A stretch of DNA of 32,739 nucleotides from positions 1 through 32,739 of the IMG/VR virus record IMGVR_UViG_3300032232_000594; one strand, written 5' to 3'. The first letter of the stretch is position 1. Each line of letters starts with the position of its first letter. Source of the DNA: a virus (Duplodnaviria > Caudoviricetes). Of this stretch, positions 10,444-32,721 are shown one piece after another. The notes beneath the pieces were generated by a model, which worked only from the letters and a program-made list of their open reading frames with translations, was not told the DNA's origin and did not search any database. The position numbers and the translations under genes were made by a program.

Positions 10444-10670
10444 GGCTTAACCTTCCAACTCCGCCCGCCGGATATGACCGCGAGTATTTCCGTTATTCGT
10501 TCAGCGCGATTGAGCGGGCGCAGTTGCTGAACGTCGTCAGGAATGAGGCGGTAGAAAGCATCCTGCTGCAGGCATCGAATGGAACGGTCTGGAAGGTGAC
10601 GGTCAGCGATACTGGAACCTTGCAGACGACATCTGTTCCGCTTGGACAGACGGGAGCGCCGAGCTACTGA
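10440..10670 (+). CDS. Small virion protein
   Basis: ATGA overlap; ILLQASNGTVWKVTVSDTG motif commonly follows nozzle genes. Confidence 0.55.
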   Translation: MRLNLPTPPAGYDREYFRYSFSAIERAQLLNVVRNEAVESILLQASNGTVWKVTVSDTGTLQTTSVPLGQTGAPSY

Positions 10671-11020
10671 TGGAAAAGGCAGAACTGGTCAGGCGCATCA
10701 AGAAGGCTCTGAAGCATGGTTTGGACACTCACAGCTATGATGATCTGGTTGCGGGATTGGATACTGGCGCGTTTCAGATGTTTGCGGACGATGACGGGGT
10801 TGTGGTCACGGAAATTCGGGTTGCGCCCCAAAAGCGATACCTGAATATCGTTCTGGTCGCCGGGGAACTTGAGACGCTGAAGAACATGCAGCCAAGGTTG
10901 GTGGAGTTTGGGCGGGCTAACGGCTGTGAATTTATCCTTGGATCAGGTAGACTAGGCTGGGAAAAGGTTGCAACGCCAGGCTGGAAGAGGCGCTGGGTGG
11001 CTCACACGCTGGATATTTAG
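10670..11020 (+). CDS. GNAT-fold acetyltransferase-like protein (T7 gp13-like position)
   Basis: VVTEI...YLNIVLVAGEL...GC.FI.GSGR.GW motif; lies between nozzle and ejection genes. Confidence 0.55.
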   Translation: MEKAELVRRIKKALKHGLDTHSYDDLVAGLDTGAFQMFADDDGVVVTEIRVAPQKRYLNIVLVAGELETLKNMQPRLVEFGRANGCEFILGSGRLGWEKVATPGWKRRWVAHTLDI

Positions 11021-11029
11021 GAGAACAGC

Positions 11030-11962
11030 ATGTCTGGTGGCGGTGGAACAACAACGCAGGTCAATAAGACCGAATACCCAGAATGGGTTCAGGAGGCTGG
11101 CCGCAAGAACCTTTCTGCGGCCTATGACATCTCCAACACGATGCTGGGGCCGTATGAGGGCCAGCGCGTCGCCAACATGGCTCCCGGTCAGTTGAGCGCG
11201 ATTGGCTCGATCTCGAATAACTATGCAATGGCTCAACCGGCGTTTGCTCAGGCGCAGATGATGGCGGCGCAGTCGGGGCAATACCAACCGCAGCAGGTGA
11301 CGCCTGGCTATTTAGCCAATGCTGATCTGTCAGCCTACATGAACCCCTATACGAAGAACGTCATCGACACTTCTTTGGAGGCGCTGAACACGCAGCGTCA
11401 GACAAACCTAAACCAGGCCTACGCTGATGCGGTCAGAGCCAAGGCGTTTGGTGGATCGCGGCAGGCCATTCAGGAGGGCGTCGTCAATGCTGCGGCGCAG
11501 CAGCAGGCGGGTCAACTTGCGGCCAACCTCTACGGACAGAACTTTCAGCAGGCGCAAGCGGCAGCGCAGGCCGACATTGCTCGCAACTTGCAGGCGCAGC
11601 AGCTCAATCAGGCTGCTGGATTGACTGGTGCTCAGGTCGGCATACAGGGTGCGCAAACGCTGGGTGGATTGGCTGGCGCTGGTCAGGAAGCCTTCCTCAC
11701 CGGGGCAACGGGCGCTCTTGGTGCGCAGTCTCTCATTCAACAGCAGCAACAGGCGCAGTTGGATGCGGCGCGGCAGGCCTATGCTGAGTCGCAGCAATTC
11801 CCGCTCCAGCAGCTCCAAATACCTCTGACGGCTTTGGGCGCAAGCCCATATGGCGGAACCCAGACGCAGACTGGAACTGGCGGAAGCAGCAGCGGGCTGC
11901 TGACTGGTCTGGGTGCGGCATCGTCTGCGGCCACCATCCTTGCGACGCTGGCCTCTCTATGA
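11030..11962 (+). CDS. Internal virion / DNA ejection (pilot) protein
   Basis: MSGGGG start; Q/A-rich; YMNPY and AFGGSRQ motifs; hydrophobic Gly-rich C-terminus. Confidence 0.65.
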   Translation: MSGGGGTTTQVNKTEYPEWVQEAGRKNLSAAYDISNTMLGPYEGQRVANMAPGQLSAIGSISNNYAMAQPAFAQAQMMAAQSGQYQPQQVTPGYLANADLSAYMNPYTKNVIDTSLEALNTQRQTNLNQAYADAVRAKAFGGSRQAIQEGVVNAAAQQQAGQLAANLYGQNFQQAQAAAQADIARNLQAQQLNQAAGLTGAQVGIQGAQTLGGLAGAGQEAFLTGATGALGAQSLIQQQQQAQLDAARQAYAESQQFPLQQLQIPLTALGASPYGGTQTQTGTGGSSSGLLTGLGAASSAATILATLASL

Positions 11963-12648
11963 TCGATACGGCGCTTCAGTTCAGCGGCGGCAAGGACAGC
12001 CTTGCTTGTCTCTATCTCTATAAAGAGAGATGGAACGACATCTATGTTGTCTGGCTGAACACTGGAGCTTCCTATCCTGAGATGATCGACTATATGGAGC
12101 GATGGTCCAAAAGGTTGCCGCACTTTGTTCATCTGAAGTCGGACCAGCCTGCAAACATCGCGGAAAGAGGATGGCCGGTTGACGTTGTACCAGTCGAGAA
12201 CACGGCGCTTGGCAAGGTCATCACCGGCAATACAGGGCCGACAATGCAATCGTGTCTTGAGTGCTGCGCGATCAACATCTGGATACCGCTTTATCAGGGC
12301 ATCAAGGACTTGGGTTGCACCAAGATCATCAAGGGTCAGCGGTTGGGCGATCGACGCAAATCAACGTCCAAGAATGGACAGGTCATCGACGGCATCGAAT
12401 ACATCATGCCGGTTGAGAACTGGACGGAAAAGCAGATATTCGACTATCTGGCTGAAGTCGGGGCAGACATGCCGCCGGGTTATGGGTTGGGCGAAAAGAC
12501 TGGTCGGGATTGCTGGGATTGCACTGGCTTTCTCGATGACAACCGCAAGCGCATCGACAATTTGCCGGAAGCGAAGCGAACCGAGATGCTGCGTAGATTG
12601 GCAATCATCGACAAAGCAATCGACGATCAAAGGATGCGTCATGGCTGA
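11959..12648 (+). CDS. PAPS/APS-reductase (CysH/DndC)-family PP-loop protein, probable 4Fe-4S
   Basis: QFSGGKDS PP-loop, NTG, CC dyad, KGQR..D, P..NWT...I.DY and CWDC motifs. Confidence 0.85.
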   Translation: MIDTALQFSGGKDSLACLYLYKERWNDIYVVWLNTGASYPEMIDYMERWSKRLPHFVHLKSDQPANIAERGWPVDVVPVENTALGKVITGNTGPTMQSCLECCAINIWIPLYQGIKDLGCTKIIKGQRLGDRRKSTSKNGQVIDGIEYIMPVENWTEKQIFDYLAEVGADMPPGYGLGEKTGRDCWDCTGFLDDNRKRIDNLPEAKRTEMLRRLAIIDKAIDDQRMRHG

Positions 12649-13453
12649 CATCAATGAGATTGCAGATTACATCTGGAAGCGCGCAAGGAGCTACAATGTA
12701 GACCCCGCAATGGCTCTTGGTATCGCTAAGTCGGAAGGTTTGAACCCAAAAACCATTGGATCGCCTACCTTTGGGAACAAGGATGCTCGCGGCTATTCTT
12801 ATGGTCCGTATCAGCTTTATTCAGGATCAAGTGATCCGACAAAGGTTGCGCCAGGCGGCATGGCACATGAGTTTGTGCAGAAGTATGGCGAGATTCCATC
12901 TGCATCAAACTGGCAGCAGCAAGTCGATTTCTCTTTGGAGCGAATGGCGAACAAGGGGGTCAAGGATTGGTATGCCGTACGCGATCGTGGGGGCGTTGAG
13001 AACATCACAAAGATTGGCGAAAAGTATGCAGGGGAACTTGGGTTCACAGGTCAACCAGCCCCGGCTCCTGCTGGCGTTTCGCCTCCTTGGTCAAACCCGG
13101 TTAGCGCACTTGGCGATCTAGATCAGAGATATCTCAACGGCGGCTTGAGTTTCCTTGCCAGCCCGATTACTGGGCTTCTGGGCGGCGGATCACCGCAGCC
13201 ACCACCAGCAACCCCGATGCCAGGACAGCGGATGCCTGATATACTGGCTCCAGTGCAAGGCGGCGATGCGCGGCTGGAGCCTGCTGGGATCACTCCAGCA
13301 ACGGCGAAGGAACTGGCAGGGTTGTCGTCGCTAGGTAATGCCTTGATGGCTGCTGGAGCGCCGAAGGGGCCGCCTCCGATGCTGGCTGGTGTGTCGCATC
13401 GTCCAAAAGTGAAAGACGACCTGTTTGCAGGCTTATTCGGATACATGGGGTAA
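12641..13453 (+). CDS. Virion-associated lytic transglycosylase/lysozyme-like ejection protein
   Basis: Start MADINEIADY at 12641; VDP.MALGIAKSEG...SYGPYQL lysozyme-fold motif; Pro/Gly-rich tail. Confidence 0.65.
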   Translation: MADINEIADYIWKRARSYNVDPAMALGIAKSEGLNPKTIGSPTFGNKDARGYSYGPYQLYSGSSDPTKVAPGGMAHEFVQKYGEIPSASNWQQQVDFSLERMANKGVKDWYAVRDRGGVENITKIGEKYAGELGFTGQPAPAPAGVSPPWSNPVSALGDLDQRYLNGGLSFLASPITGLLGGGSPQPPPATPMPGQRMPDILAPVQGGDARLEPAGITPATAKELAGLSSLGNALMAAGAPKGPPPMLAGVSHRPKVKDDLFAGLFGYMG

Positions 13454-13458
13454 AGACA

Positions 13459-15333
13459 ATGGCGACAGCAGCAGAAGTTCAAGACCTTTACAATTCAGTC
13501 ATTGGCCGCACTGGAACGCCGGATGAGGTGGCTTGGTGGCTAAATACTGGAAAAAGCAGGGGAGAGATGCTGCTTGATTTCATTAATGCACGAAACGACG
13601 CCGCACAGGTTCAGCGGGCGGCAGAAATCGTGCAATCTGGAGCAAGCCAGATCACAAATCCGACGTCTTGGAATAGCATCGTTCAAAATGTTGCTCCTAC
13701 AACTACAACTTCCGCAACCCTTCCTAGCGTCATGGGCGGTAAAACAACTGGTTCGACCGCAGATGAAGTGCAGTCGCTCTATAAATCAATCATTGGCCGA
13801 ACCGGAACGCCGGATGAGGTGGCTTGGTGGGTCAATCGCGGCATGACGATGGACCAAATGGCTCCTGAGTTTATGGCTGCAAAGAACAATGCGGCTACGG
13901 TCCAGAGGGCGGCGGACATTGTTAAGTCTGGCGCAAGTCAAGTTGTTAATCCGACGACATGGGCTGATGTTTTAAGCGGCGTTACCAACGCGACAACAAC
14001 TGGTGGGGTAACTGGTGGTTTGTTGGGAGCAACAACTGATGAAACAACTGGTAAGACAACTAGTGCGGTGACTGGTGGTTTGTTGGGAGCAACAACTGAT
14101 GAAACAACTGGTAAGACAACTAGTGCGGTGACTGGTGGTTTGTTGGGAGCAACAACTGATGAAACAACTGGTAATACAACTGATGCGGTAACTGGTAAGG
14201 TAACAACTGGTAATACAACTGATGAAACAACTGGTAATACAACTGATGCGGTAACTGGTAAGGTAACAACTGGTAATACAACTGGTAATACAACTGATGC
14301 GGTAACTGGTAAGGTAACAACTGGTAATACAACTGATGCGGTAACTGGTAAGGTAACAACTGGTAATACAACTGATGCGGTAACTGGTAAGGTAACAACT
14401 GGTAATACAACTGATGCGGTGACTGGTGGGGTGACTGGTGGGGTAACTGGTGGGGTTCAAGGTCCAACAGCGTCTGACATTCAATCGCTCTATAATAGCT
14501 TGATCGGTCGAACGGGGACTGCTGATGAAGTTAATGCTTGGCTTAAAAGCGGCAAAAGCATTTCTCAGATGGTATCTGACTTTATGGATGCCCGCAACAA
14601 TTCTGCTGCTATCCAACAGTCTGCTGACCTCATTAAGTCAGGGGCTAGCCAGGTCACGAATGCCAGCACATGGCAGTCAATTTTGGATAGCATAAAGGCT
14701 AAAGCCACAACTACCGGCACGACGACTGGTGGGTTGCTTGGTGAAACGACAACCGGCGGCGTAAAGCAGACTGTTACAGCGGCTGATATTTCCAATCTAT
14801 ATAGAAATATCATCGGATCAACCGCCGACACAAAAGGTATGAATTTTTGGCTTGGAAAGGCTGCTGGCGGGATGGATCTCGCCACTATGGAGGCCGAGTT
14901 TAGAACGGCGATGACTGATCCTGCATTGCTGGCTCAACGTGCAGCTCTTATCAAGTCTGGTGAAGCGCAAAATGTGACGTCATCTACTATGCCTTCTGGC
15001 TTCACAGGATTCCAATCTGGCATCCGTGAGGTTCCATTTGGAGGAACTGTCGTTGGGCAAAACGTCACTGGCCCTGGCCCGGCATATACTGCGGCTATGT
15101 ACGCACCTTCGATCCAAGATGCTTTCTTGCGGTCGATGCAGTATCAGTCGCAGCTTCCCAACATGCTCCCTGTCTTCAATCCTGCGGCGACACCTTCGAT
15201 CTATCCGCAGATTGCGCAGGAACTGGGCCGATACAACATTGCTGGAGCGCAAGTTCCTTCATGGCTGCGTGTGACGACGCCAACTGATGCAAACACGCTT
15301 GCAACAGCGCGGACCACTTCTACCGGAGAATGA
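13459..15333 (+). CDS. Repeat protein: four DUF4214-like helical repeats plus Thr/Gly tandem-repeat linker
   Basis: Four copies of (E/D)(V/I)..LY...IG.T......(A/F)W...G.....M...F near 13459, 13753, 14467 and 14773. Confidence 0.6.
   Translation: MATAAEVQDLYNSVIGRTGTPDEVAWWLNTGKSRGEMLLDFINARNDAAQVQRAAEIVQSGASQITNPTSWNSIVQNVAPTTTTSATLPSVMGGKTTGSTADEVQSLYKSIIGRTGTPDEVAWWVNRGMTMDQMAPEFMAAKNNAATVQRAADIVKSGASQVVNPTTWADVLSGVTNATTTGGVTGGLLGATTDETTGKTTSAVTGGLLGATTDETTGKTTSAVTGGLLGATTDETTGNTTDAVTGKVTTGNTTDETTGNTTDAVTGKVTTGNTTGNTTDAVTGKVTTGNTTDAVTGKVTTGNTTDAVTGKVTTGNTTDAVTGGVTGGVTGGVQGPTASDIQSLYNSLIGRTGTADEVNAWLKSGKSISQMVSDFMDARNNSAAIQQSADLIKSGASQVTNASTWQSILDSIKAKATTTGTTTGGLLGETTTGGVKQTVTAADISNLYRNIIGSTADTKGMNFWLGKAAGGMDLATMEAEFRTAMTDPALLAQRAALIKSGEAQNVTSSTMPSGFTGFQSGIREVPFGGTVVGQNVTGPGPAYTAAMYAPSIQDAFLRSMQYQSQLPNMLPVFNPAATPSIYPQIAQELGRYNIAGAQVPSWLRVTTPTDANTLATARTTSTGE
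13993..14457 (+). repeat. Coding VNTR built from ACAACTGGT-like subunits (60-bp and 39-bp higher-order units)
   Basis: Exact 60-bp copies at 14011-14070 and 14071-14130; repeated ACTGGTAAGGTAACAACTGGTAATACAACTGATGCGGTA units from 14191. Confidence 0.95.
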
Positions 15334-25802: not shown

Positions 25803-25899
25803 AAAAATTTTCGGGAAAAATGAGGTTTGAAAATCGTGGTCGATTGGGTTTTCGAAAAATTTTCGGGAAAAATGAGTTCTAAAAATCGTAGTCGATTGG
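25796..25899. repeat. 52-bp tandem duplication rich in A/T tracts
   Basis: Copies at 25796-25847 and 25848-25899, each with AAAAATTTTCGGGAAAAATGAG and ending in the IR AATCG-N4-CGATT. Confidence 0.9.
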
Positions 25900-25903
25900 A
25901 TGA

Positions 25904-26159
<256 letters not shown>

Positions 26160-26169
26160 TATGCCAATC

Positions 26170-26385
26170 CTATCGTTGCAAACGCCTACGCCTCATTAGC
26201 TCAAAGGTAATGCCATCCATCTCGGCTAGCAGCTTGGCAACGTAAGGGTCACGCGTGTCACGCTCGCGGTATATGGGGAGCGTCGCCGAAATATCCCGCA
26301 AAGCGCCATTTAATTCTGCGATGGTTTTTGAGCGTGCACGGGCTTCATAATAGGCCAAGCTTTGGTAGGATGGTTCGATTTTCAT
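26170..26385 (-). CDS. Hypothetical early protein
   Basis: 71-aa helical ORF; GGGGTCACCTA precedes the ATG. Confidence 0.6.
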   Translation of the reverse strand: MKIEPSYQSLAYYEARARSKTIAELNGALRDISATLPIYRERDTRDPYVAKLLAEMDGITFELMRRRRLQR

Positions 26386-30874: not shown

Positions 30875-31381
30875 ATGCCGCGCCAGATGGAAGACGATAT
30901 GGGCATGGGTCCAGAACCCATTGACATGGAAGACAGCGAGCGCGGCGATTCCTGCCCGCAGGCTACCGGCGACGTCACCCTGAACATGAAAAACAGGGGC
31001 AAGGCGATCGACAAGGCTGACTATGGACCGATGGACCCGAACAAGCCTAACGATCAGTATTGGACGAAAATGGGTCGCCGCTGGAAGGTCTCTGGCGAAG
31101 AAGCCAAAGACATGCTCTGCGGCAACTGCGCTGCGTTCAATCAGAAGAAGCACATCATCGACTGCATCGAGGAGGGTCTAGGGGATGGAATGGCAGATGA
31201 CGCGATGGAAGTCATTGATGCTGGAGATTTGGGCTTCTGCGAAATGTTTGACTTCAAGTGCGCTGCTAAACGTACGTGCGCCGCGTGGATCGTCGGTGGA
31301 CCGATTACGGACGATGCCGAGGGTGACGATACAGATGAGTATGAGGACGAAGGCGGGTCTGAAGAGGGTGAATATAAATGA
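30875..31381 (+). CDS. Acidic Cys-rich conserved phage protein
   Basis: CP.AT.D...N..NR..AI...YGP..P; CGNCAAF; GFC..FDFKC...RTC.AW. Confidence 0.7.
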   Translation: MPRQMEDDMGMGPEPIDMEDSERGDSCPQATGDVTLNMKNRGKAIDKADYGPMDPNKPNDQYWTKMGRRWKVSGEEAKDMLCGNCAAFNQKKHIIDCIEEGLGDGMADDAMEVIDAGDLGFCEMFDFKCAAKRTCAAWIVGGPITDDAEGDDTDEYEDEGGSEEGEYK

Positions 31382-32022
31382 ACCTTAGCATCTGCGTCCC
31401 AGCCCGAGAGACTGTGAACACAGGTTTCTGTTATGACCTGGCAATGCTGACGGCGCGGTTCTACGGCACAGCCAAAGAAGGAACGACATTCAACCTCAAC
31501 TTTATCAACGGAACCCTGATCGCCGATCAAAGGACGAAGCTGATCGAAATGAGCCTGAAGGAAGGGGCGACGCATATTCTGTTTCTGGACAGCGATATGC
31601 GTTTCCCATCCAATCTCGTGGAGAAGCTGGCAAGGCACGATAAAGACATCATCGCCTGTAATTACGCCACCAGGCGTTTGCCAGTGAAGACAGTTGCGTT
31701 CAAAGATTTCTCAACCCTGTCTTACATCTATTCCATAGACAAGACGGGGCTGGAGGAGTGCGATGCCGTGGGTATGGGCGCAATGCTGATCAAGGCGGAC
31801 GTGTTCAAGAAGCTCGCCTATCCCTGGTTTCAGATCCACTACCTGCCAAATGCCAGAATGTGGGCGGGTGAAGATATGTTTTTCTGTCAGTTGGCGAAGG
31901 CTGGCGGCTATCAGATATGGATCGACCATGACACGTCAAAAGACGTGAGGCATATCGGTTCATTCGAGTTTGGTCATGAACACACGGAGGCCGAATATGA
32001 AAAGCTTGGACAAGATCGCTAA
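31378..32022 (+). CDS. GT-A fold glycosyltransferase (family 2-like)
   Basis: ICVP, HILFLDSDM (DxD), GMGAMLIK..VF, GED..FC and HIG motifs. Confidence 0.8.
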   Translation: MNLSICVPARETVNTGFCYDLAMLTARFYGTAKEGTTFNLNFINGTLIADQRTKLIEMSLKEGATHILFLDSDMRFPSNLVEKLARHDKDIIACNYATRRLPVKTVAFKDFSTLSYIYSIDKTGLEECDAVGMGAMLIKADVFKKLAYPWFQIHYLPNARMWAGEDMFFCQLAKAGGYQIWIDHDTSKDVRHIGSFEFGHEHTEAEYEKLGQDR

Positions 32023-32164
32023 AGTGATGGACGAGTACAATCGCGGCAAGCTTCATGCTGGCGTTAATCCAAAAGGCCCGAAGAAGGCTCCGCTGGCCAA
32101 GTCTCGCAAGCAGGCAGTTGCGATTGCTCTGTCAGAAGCTGGGATGAGCAAAAAGAAGAAGTGA
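31997..32164 (+). CDS. Small basic protein (DUF6496-like)
   Basis: KIAKVM.EY..GKLH.G...SRKQAVAIALSEAG. Confidence 0.7.
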   Translation: MKSLDKIAKVMDEYNRGKLHAGVNPKGPKKAPLAKSRKQAVAIALSEAGMSKKKK

Positions 32165-32721
32165 TGGATCACTTTTACGAACAGATCCAAGGTTGGTTTA
32201 ACTTTGCAGATCCCTATCGCCGGGCTGTCAGAGAAGCATCTGATGGCTCGGTGTTTGTCGAACTGGGGTGCTGGAAGGGAAAATCTGCCGTCTTTCTTGG
32301 CGTTGAGGTCATCAACTCAGGAAAGGCGATCTCTGTTCACTATGTCGATCACTGGGGCGGATCAAATGAACCTGAGCACAAAACTGATCCTGATCTTGAA
32401 CGTGTTTTTGGGCTTTTTATGGATGGCATTGACCGCCTGCATGGTCTTGATTGCAAGGTGCATCGAGGCCGGACAGTGGATGTGGCGGCAGAGTTTAGAG
32501 ATGGCAGCGTTGATTTCGTCTGGGTCGATGCAGGCCATGAATATGACGAGGTATTGGCTGACATCAAGGCTTGGTGGCCGAAGCTAAAGGTGGGCGGCGT
32601 CATGGGCGGTGACGATTACCCTATGGATGGTGTAAAGTCTGCGGTGGAAGAGTTTTTCCCCCAACACGAAGTCGGCTCCGAAAGCGGCTGGCAGTGGTGG
32701 CGGGTCAAGAAGCGAGGCTAA
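32164..32721 (+). CDS. Class I SAM-dependent methyltransferase (Methyltransf_24-like, small-molecule/sugar type)
   Basis: VELGCWKGKS, VDHW, DFVWVDAGHEY..V..D...W...LK.GG...GDDY. Confidence 0.85.
   Translation: MDHFYEQIQGWFNFADPYRRAVREASDGSVFVELGCWKGKSAVFLGVEVINSGKAISVHYVDHWGGSNEPEHKTDPDLERVFGLFMDGIDRLHGLDCKVHRGRTVDVAAEFRDGSVDFVWVDAGHEYDEVLADIKAWWPKLKVGGVMGGDDYPMDGVKSAVEEFFPQHEVGSESGWQWWRVKKRG

Follow-up and report, generated by a model that had tools for sequence, protein, structure and literature searches.

The window analysed here is a single 32.7-kb phage contig (32,739 nucleotides) that carries SU10-type adaptor, fibre and ejection genes, as annotated with Pfam and PHROG. One of the genes among those for ejection, at 11959..12648 (plus strand), encodes a protein with the fold of PAPS reductases, and viral cysH genes are widely counted as sulfur auxiliary metabolic genes. 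The question raised by this locus is what such a protein does directly behind the gene of a pilot protein. The reading that we favour, with a probability of roughly 45%, is that the 11959 product works during assembly, where it adenylates the free C-terminus of the pilot and caps it.

The 11959 gene encodes a PP-loop protein with a PAPS-reductase fold

The 11959 product is a PP-loop protein of 229 residues, with SGGKDS at residues 9-14, CC at residues 102-103 and CxxC at residues 185-188 (C102, C103, C185 and C188). The gene begins in an ATGA overlap with the 11030 gene (11959-11962) and ends in an 8-nt overlap with the 12641 gene (12641-12648), and the motif ECG(L/I)H is absent from the 229 residues. 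The reading frame, the three motifs, the missing ECG(L/I)H and both overlaps had been reported in a first-pass annotation and are all reproduced. The match to Pfam PF01507 lies above the cut-off (E 2.9e-14) and places the protein in the PAPS-reductase/PP-loop superfamily, and comparison with close homologues gives dN/dS values of 0.04-0.12 in 10 of 10 pairs, which reveal purifying selection. A CC-x(~80)-CxxC spacing is that of the 4Fe-4S ligands in APS reductase, and from this spacing the 11959 product is predicted to be a 4Fe-4S protein.

The AlphaFold model (pLDDT 96) is matched best by structures of PAPS/APS reductases (Z 13.5-15.2, rmsd 2.8-3.6, 163-177 residues aligned), among them 7rge (Z 15.2, rmsd 3.3, 163 aligned), followed by CysD (Z 12.2), GMP synthase (12.2), FAD synthase (11.8), TilS and NcsA (both 11.0) and LarE (10.6). 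A second structural comparison returns the same top family. By itself, this likeness to reductases proves no function.

A homologue search with the 11959 product retains 560 of 725 candidates at E <= 0.001, and a profile search yields 557 representatives at E 1e-10. The family is present in 43 phage records; four members are found in bacterial genomes, where the remaining matches are weak and mostly CysD. The CC..CxxC set is present in 120 of 120 close homologues and in 141 of 150 distant representatives, and the SGGxDS pyrophosphate loop in 118 of the 120 close ones. Some representatives are fused to other domains, either a CxxCxxCC domain or N-terminal domains with an HExxH-like motif that have no Pfam match (P0178, P0212, P0126 and P0138).

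The family differs from CysH

Relatives of the 11959 gene are already annotated in cultured phages. The "PAPS reductase" genes of Lessievirus and Gervaisevirus phages (Bcep22 gp73, JC1 gp65, CSP3 orf41 and that of GP4) belong to the same family, with 36-40% identity, and lie in the same order of GNAT, pilot, enzyme and ejection genes. In the available portions of PMC9144972 and PMC10269572 they are called sulfate-reduction morons, with no link to S74 or to the pilot C-terminus, and the function given for the CSP3 enzyme is much as in JC1 (PMC10269572, same portions).

If the proposal for JC1 and CSP3 held here, the 11959 gene would be an auxiliary metabolic gene for sulfate assimilation, encoding a CysH/APS reductase. 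The top structural matches to PAPS/APS reductases favour this, as does the cysteine spacing, which CysH and the 11959 product share along with the fold. Unlike CysH, however, the 11959 product has an intact SGGKDS and no ECG(L/I)H tail; in the model, this tail is replaced by two predicted helices, and the motif is present in 0 of 270 homologues (120 close and 150 distant). Scores against TIGR00434, TIGR02055, TIGR02057 and PRK02090 are 22-32 bits, where the curated cut-offs are 154-254, and no cys genes lie near 11959. In a tree that sampled three CysH and four CysD sequences (DndC left out, the mis-trimmed P0138 disregarded), the family groups apart from both, with weak support (76). We consider sulfate assimilation extremely unlikely, and the earlier view that this is not a sulfur-assimilation gene is upheld by the missing catalytic tail and by scores far below the NCBIfam cut-offs.

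The pilot gene is the constant neighbour

The upstream gene, 11030..11962 (plus strand), encodes a pilot (first ejection) protein of 310 residues without an S74 tail, which is the likely substrate. It matches PHROG 4287 (DNA ejection protein) with E 1.7e-14, and its homologues occur with and without PF13884. The PHROG match and the position suggest a gp14 role, and T7 gp14-type proteins are described as water-insoluble and outer-membrane-inserting (PMC8954989). In the homologue alignment, the pilot ends in a hydrophobic, Gly/Ala-rich segment (11894..11962, plus strand) whose last residue is Leu, and the stop falls where homologues start the Ser-Asp of S74.

A survey anchored on the enzyme comprises 111 loci in 58 clusters. 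In 57 of the 58, the enzyme follows a pilot-like ORF with a hydrophobic tail, a count that is partly circular since the upstream ORF was picked by tail hydrophobicity, so that the pilot-anchored counts below weigh more. The gap between the two genes is at most 60 nt in 53 of the 58 clusters. The last residue of the 57 upstream ORFs is F in 32, L in 20, M in 2, Y in 2 and I in 1, and the custom S74 profile finds no S74 in any of them. The upstream pilots fall into 7 BLAST families (8 with the exception, L108), and 52 downstream ORFs fall into 31; the downstream genes vary, and the constant partner of the enzyme is the upstream pilot. L108, where the enzyme lies away from the pilot, is the sole exception among the 58 clusters. 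Two other members (L306:3958-4689 and L305:1507-2238) are flanked by a likely small-terminase gene on one side and the large terminase region on the other, with no pilot beside them. Apparent pilot-enzyme fusions in L103-L105 and L079 were rejected, as the genes overlap out of frame.

The order GNAT, virion protein (pilot), enzyme and ejection genes is found in Bcep22, GP4 and JC1, the position matches in a Manatee Spring phage and in phiA008, and full-length homologues sit directly after the pilot gene. The gene order is already annotated in Lessievirus genomes, and 11959 is not unique to one phage. These neighbourhoods across distant podophages support the tie to ejection genes proposed at first pass, which an absence of linkage among homologues was to have refuted.

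The enzyme and the S74 tail exclude each other

Among the best 120 homologues of the 11030 product, 32 carry a Peptidase_S74 tail as an extension; the short ones end one residue ahead of the S74 Ser-Asp. MYRF is reported to be cleaved before the equivalent serine (PMC8326128). Both pilot forms would then mature to the same end, given that the short form stops at the preceding residue. Peptidase_S74 (as in endosialidase and MYRF) thus occupies the same place on homologous pilots as the enzyme-linked stop, but it acts in cis and without ATP, and its fold is unrelated to that of the 11959 product.

Across three pilot families, 166 dereplicated loci comprise 48 with the enzyme, 60 with S74, 58 with neither and none with both, where in families A and B the "neither" calls come from the custom S74 profile, so that some of them may hide divergent tails. 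Family A contributes 155 loci, of which 39 were dropped (18 with a short flank, 11 cut and 10 weak) and 116 kept (45 enzyme, 27 S74 and 44 neither); dereplication leaves 21, 26 and 29, respectively, and none of all 34 S74 rows of this family has the enzyme in its flanks. Family B (80 loci, 14 dropped) gives 2 enzyme, 18 S74 and 23 neither after dereplication, and family C (65 loci, 5 dropped) gives 25, 6 and 16 before Pfam, which moved 10 of the 16 to S74 (9 above the cut-off and 1 weak) with the same junction. Divergent tails starting Ser-Ser-Lys in place of Ser-Asp, detected by Pfam and missed by the custom profile, are present in L413, L416, L420, L430, L432 and L435 of family C.

An enzyme hidden elsewhere in the S74 or neither genomes was also considered and rejected. 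The family is absent from 29 whole records of these two states, which include 9 that are at least 90% complete and one complete GenBank genome, and 3 of 3 controls are positive; in 25 further records searched with PF01507, one has a distant-subfamily gene elsewhere. A natural pair comes from Manatee Spring, where MW202711 carries the enzyme and a short pilot, and MW202496 carries an S74 pilot and no enzyme.

The last residue of the pilot follows the same division. It is F, L, M, Y or I in 48 of 48 enzyme-linked pilots, compared with 14 of the 58 neither pilots; the latter mostly terminate in G, R or K. In half of the 14 hydrophobic-ended ones (7), the slot is taken by another small gene, either a 149-aa ORF or DUF7694, and neither of these has features of an ATP enzyme. 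The 149-aa gene follows S74-less pilots ending in Ile (L251:4791-5240, also L248, L252, L255, L267, L273, L274, L277 and L279), and its product has no Pfam, PHROG or Atlas match. The DUF7694 gene (100-103 aa) lies directly after pilots that end in Ala-Phe, as enzyme-linked ones do (L383:3304-3606, L337, L344 and L349); the complete L383 genome has no PF01507 gene.

State changes are frequent. Near-identical pilots differ in state (L183/L192 and L246/L258), from which it follows that the 3' end of the pilot gene is a cassette that can be exchanged. Explaining the enzyme state on the tree of family A takes 8 changes, at least 3 of them forced by strong branches. Well-supported branches provide 3 independent pairs, for which a sign test is not significant, and the loci are related to each other. 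Two of the 150 distant representatives (P0239 and P0267) have the enzyme fused to a C-terminal Peptidase_S74; the search for their genomic context gave unfused relatives only. The N-termini of enzyme-linked and S74 pilots are alike, and the pilot N-terminus was rejected as the enzyme's target on this ground. The first-pass annotation had named virion proteins, DNA or a host target as substrates; the S74 exclusion, unseen there, directs attention to the pilot C-terminus.

Proposed capping of the pilot C-terminus

The terminal carboxylate of the pilot would be the simplest substrate to become exposed exactly when S74 is lost. We infer that the enzyme acts during assembly and outside the particle, where it would bind the hydrophobic C-terminal helix of the pilot, and its SGGKDS loop would adenylate the free carboxylate with ATP, by analogy with LarE and Cap9. 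Given the predicted Fe-S site, a thioacid would be the first choice for the cap; a methyl thioester or ester may be formed where a partner methyltransferase is present, and an amide is also conceivable. The cap could mask a nonpolar C-terminal degron and strip the charge from a membrane-inserting helix, a job that an S74 tail would do in cis.

Capping is favoured because 57 of 58 clusters place the enzyme behind a hydrophobic-ended pilot and none behind S74, no locus of the 166 has both, and all 48 enzyme-linked pilots share the hydrophobic last residue. It is also favoured because the stop codon falls at the residue before the S74 serine with pilot N-termini alike in both states, and because the 150 representatives include the two enzyme-S74 fusions and 14 fusions to a SAM methyltransferase. 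This class I methyltransferase family occurs on either side of the enzyme or fused to it, at scattered places in the enzyme tree (L080:3711-4391, L091:1050-1712, L090 and L111; P0122 and 13 other fusions). It lies adjacent to the enzyme in 4 of the 58 clusters, and two clusters have a methyltransferase between pilot and enzyme; a genomic context for the fusions was looked for and not found. Such a methyltransferase might perform a second step on the cap.

A complex of the enzyme with the last 45 residues of the pilot, ATP and 4Fe-4S was predicted. It scores 0.33, compared with 0.00 for the best control, with contacts agreeing in at least 18% and a partner pLDDT of at least 42. Among solved pairs, 116 of 157 reach the mark, as do 2 of 215 mismatched ones; 18 of the 157 and both mismatches do so at 0.60 or under. 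The result, which comes with no interface, gives binding weak support.

Known PP-loop enzymes offer partial parallels. LarE converts a carboxylate to a thiocarboxylate (PMC8584467) and shares the SGGxDS loop with the 11959 product (Z 10.6, rmsd 3.2, 148 residues aligned to the 4Fe-4S form), but its substrate is a small molecule, its cysteine set is CxxC-C and the identity is 13-17%. Cap9 of type IV CBASS, a QueC-like enzyme, modifies the terminus of a protein encoded by a neighbouring gene and aligns with the model at Z 9.5, rmsd 4.5 and 160 residues; unlike 11959, it belongs to the QueC family, conjugates a deazaguanine to the N-terminus and serves host defence. As for the degron, reporters in Mycoplasma pneumoniae are degraded faster with a C-terminal F or L and reach higher levels with K (PMC7246954), but for E. 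coli, neither ClpXP nor ClpAP degraded bulky hydrophobic tags in vitro (bioRxiv 2024.01.29.576913).

Several further observations weigh against capping. Neither S74 nor the enzyme accompanies 58 of the 166 pilots, 14 of which are hydrophobic-ended, and cassette exchange alone could give the exclusion, as near-identical pilots switch state. Simple hydrolysis by S74 would leave a carboxylate without a cap. Some members of the family lie away from pilots (L108, L305/L306), and all four cysteines show the conservation seen in APS reductase, with no obvious free iron for sulfur transfer.

Alternative explanations

The enzyme might instead serve as a chaperone or escort in trans, which would shield the hydrophobic C-terminal helix until packaging with no covalent change and replace S74 in its role as an intramolecular chaperone (PMC8326128). 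All of the linkage and exclusion evidence fits such an escort, as do the unrelated small proteins in the same slot after hydrophobic-ended pilots; an escort would leave the PP-loop Asp, invariant in 139 of 139 sequences, and the four nearly invariant cysteines to be explained, and the repeated fusion to SAM methyltransferases hints at chemistry. We regard it as unlikely, though not negligible. Similarly doubtful is that the slot favours recombination and takes up late cargo, where the enzyme modifies some other target (a small molecule, the host, the pilot N-terminus or another virion protein) and the S74 exclusion reflects cassette replacement. The frequent switching among near-identical pilots, the members outside the slot (L108, L305/L306), the likeness of the methyltransferase partner to small-molecule enzymes and the N-terminal precedent of Cap9 would suit this account. 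Cargo could equally follow an S74-tailed pilot, yet it does so in 0 of 60 cases; moreover, the switch point is the same in three pilot families, and the last residue tracks the enzyme in 48 of 48.

The first-pass annotation suggested a packaged or ejected enzyme, active in the host at entry, which the position among ejection genes and the translational coupling would allow. Table 6 of PMC9144972, however, lists among 16 proteins found by mass spectrometry of the JC1 virion gp64 (the pilot), gp67, gp68 and gp69, and neither the enzyme homologue gp65 nor the GNAT gp63; whole-lane mass spectrometry may overlook low-copy proteins. On this table, the suggestion is not borne out, and we hold it to be very unlikely. 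A similarly low probability is given to an enzyme of the DndC/SspD/TdpC kind that introduces phosphorothioate into the DNA or RNA of the phage (PMC12914056). The fold family and the intact SGGKDS are shared, and PADLOC returns weak matches to SspD (E 4.4e-4, residues 6-57) and BrxP (E 0.009), but these cover little past the PP-loop. DndC, SspD, BrxP and TdpC act on DNA with NTPase partners, and the 11959 product matches their profiles weakly; no Dnd, Ssp or Brx partner is found among six other window proteins scanned or in the Pfam/PHROG annotation, and the neighbours of 11959 are GNAT, pilot and ejection genes, with no adjacent P-loop NTPase. Phosphorothioation would also leave the tie to the pilot end unexplained.

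Relation to annotated viral cysH genes

The gene and its position were known from cultured phages; a literature search covering mostly open-access main texts finds no published link of the "PAPS reductase" gene to the pilot C-terminus or to S74. At least one widespread "cysH" set (557 representatives at E 1e-10) behaves like genes for morphogenesis, and the 11959 family offers a handle on how a water-insoluble first ejection protein stays intact and primed before outer-membrane insertion. Beyond capping, a broader scheme, which we put forward as a long shot, would have the pilot C-terminus mature by two convergent routes, through ATP-dependent acyl-adenylation in trans by the Fe-S PP-loop family (thioacid or methyl thioester) or through an N-to-O acyl shift in cis by S74. 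Either route would activate one and the same terminal carboxyl, which could then be passed to a lipid or partner protein. These routes may be likened to ubiquitin-like and Hedgehog-like processing, and, if they exist, one class of viral "cysH" genes would be virion-maturation enzymes.

Neighbouring genes

The gene at 10670..11020 (plus strand) encodes a GNAT-fold protein. Profile searches give no sequence-family GNAT match, but Foldseek with the AlphaFold model (pLDDT 88) retrieves mainly GNAT acetyltransferases (E about 1e-4, TM 0.55-0.68), so the earlier GNAT label holds for the fold and finds no counterpart in sequence profiles. The proposed ejectosome-modification system of this GNAT and the enzyme is not supported: the 10670 family precedes 43 of 44 enzyme-linked pilots and also 17 of 24 S74 and 12 of 42 neither pilots, and an unrelated gene takes its position in L088. 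A dedicated pair is rejected on these counts, and the protein is a general companion of pilots, independent of the enzyme.

The next ejection-module gene, 12641..13453 (plus strand), had been labelled a virion lysozyme; its 8-nt overlap with 11959 stands, and the lysozyme identity has weak support (Pfam E 0.09-0.11; a sequence match in the PDB is absent). Its product is probably no substrate of the enzyme, as the downstream slot is variable and the family also follows pilots without the enzyme (L246 and L258). Further along the ejection module, positions 13459-15333 encode a 624-aa Thr/Gly-rich repeat protein with DUF4214. Glycosyltransferase-like and methyltransferase genes lie at 31378-32721, downstream of the large terminase, and short tandem repeats at 25827-26210, which read as Gln-Pro-Ala-Ser, are probably non-coding.
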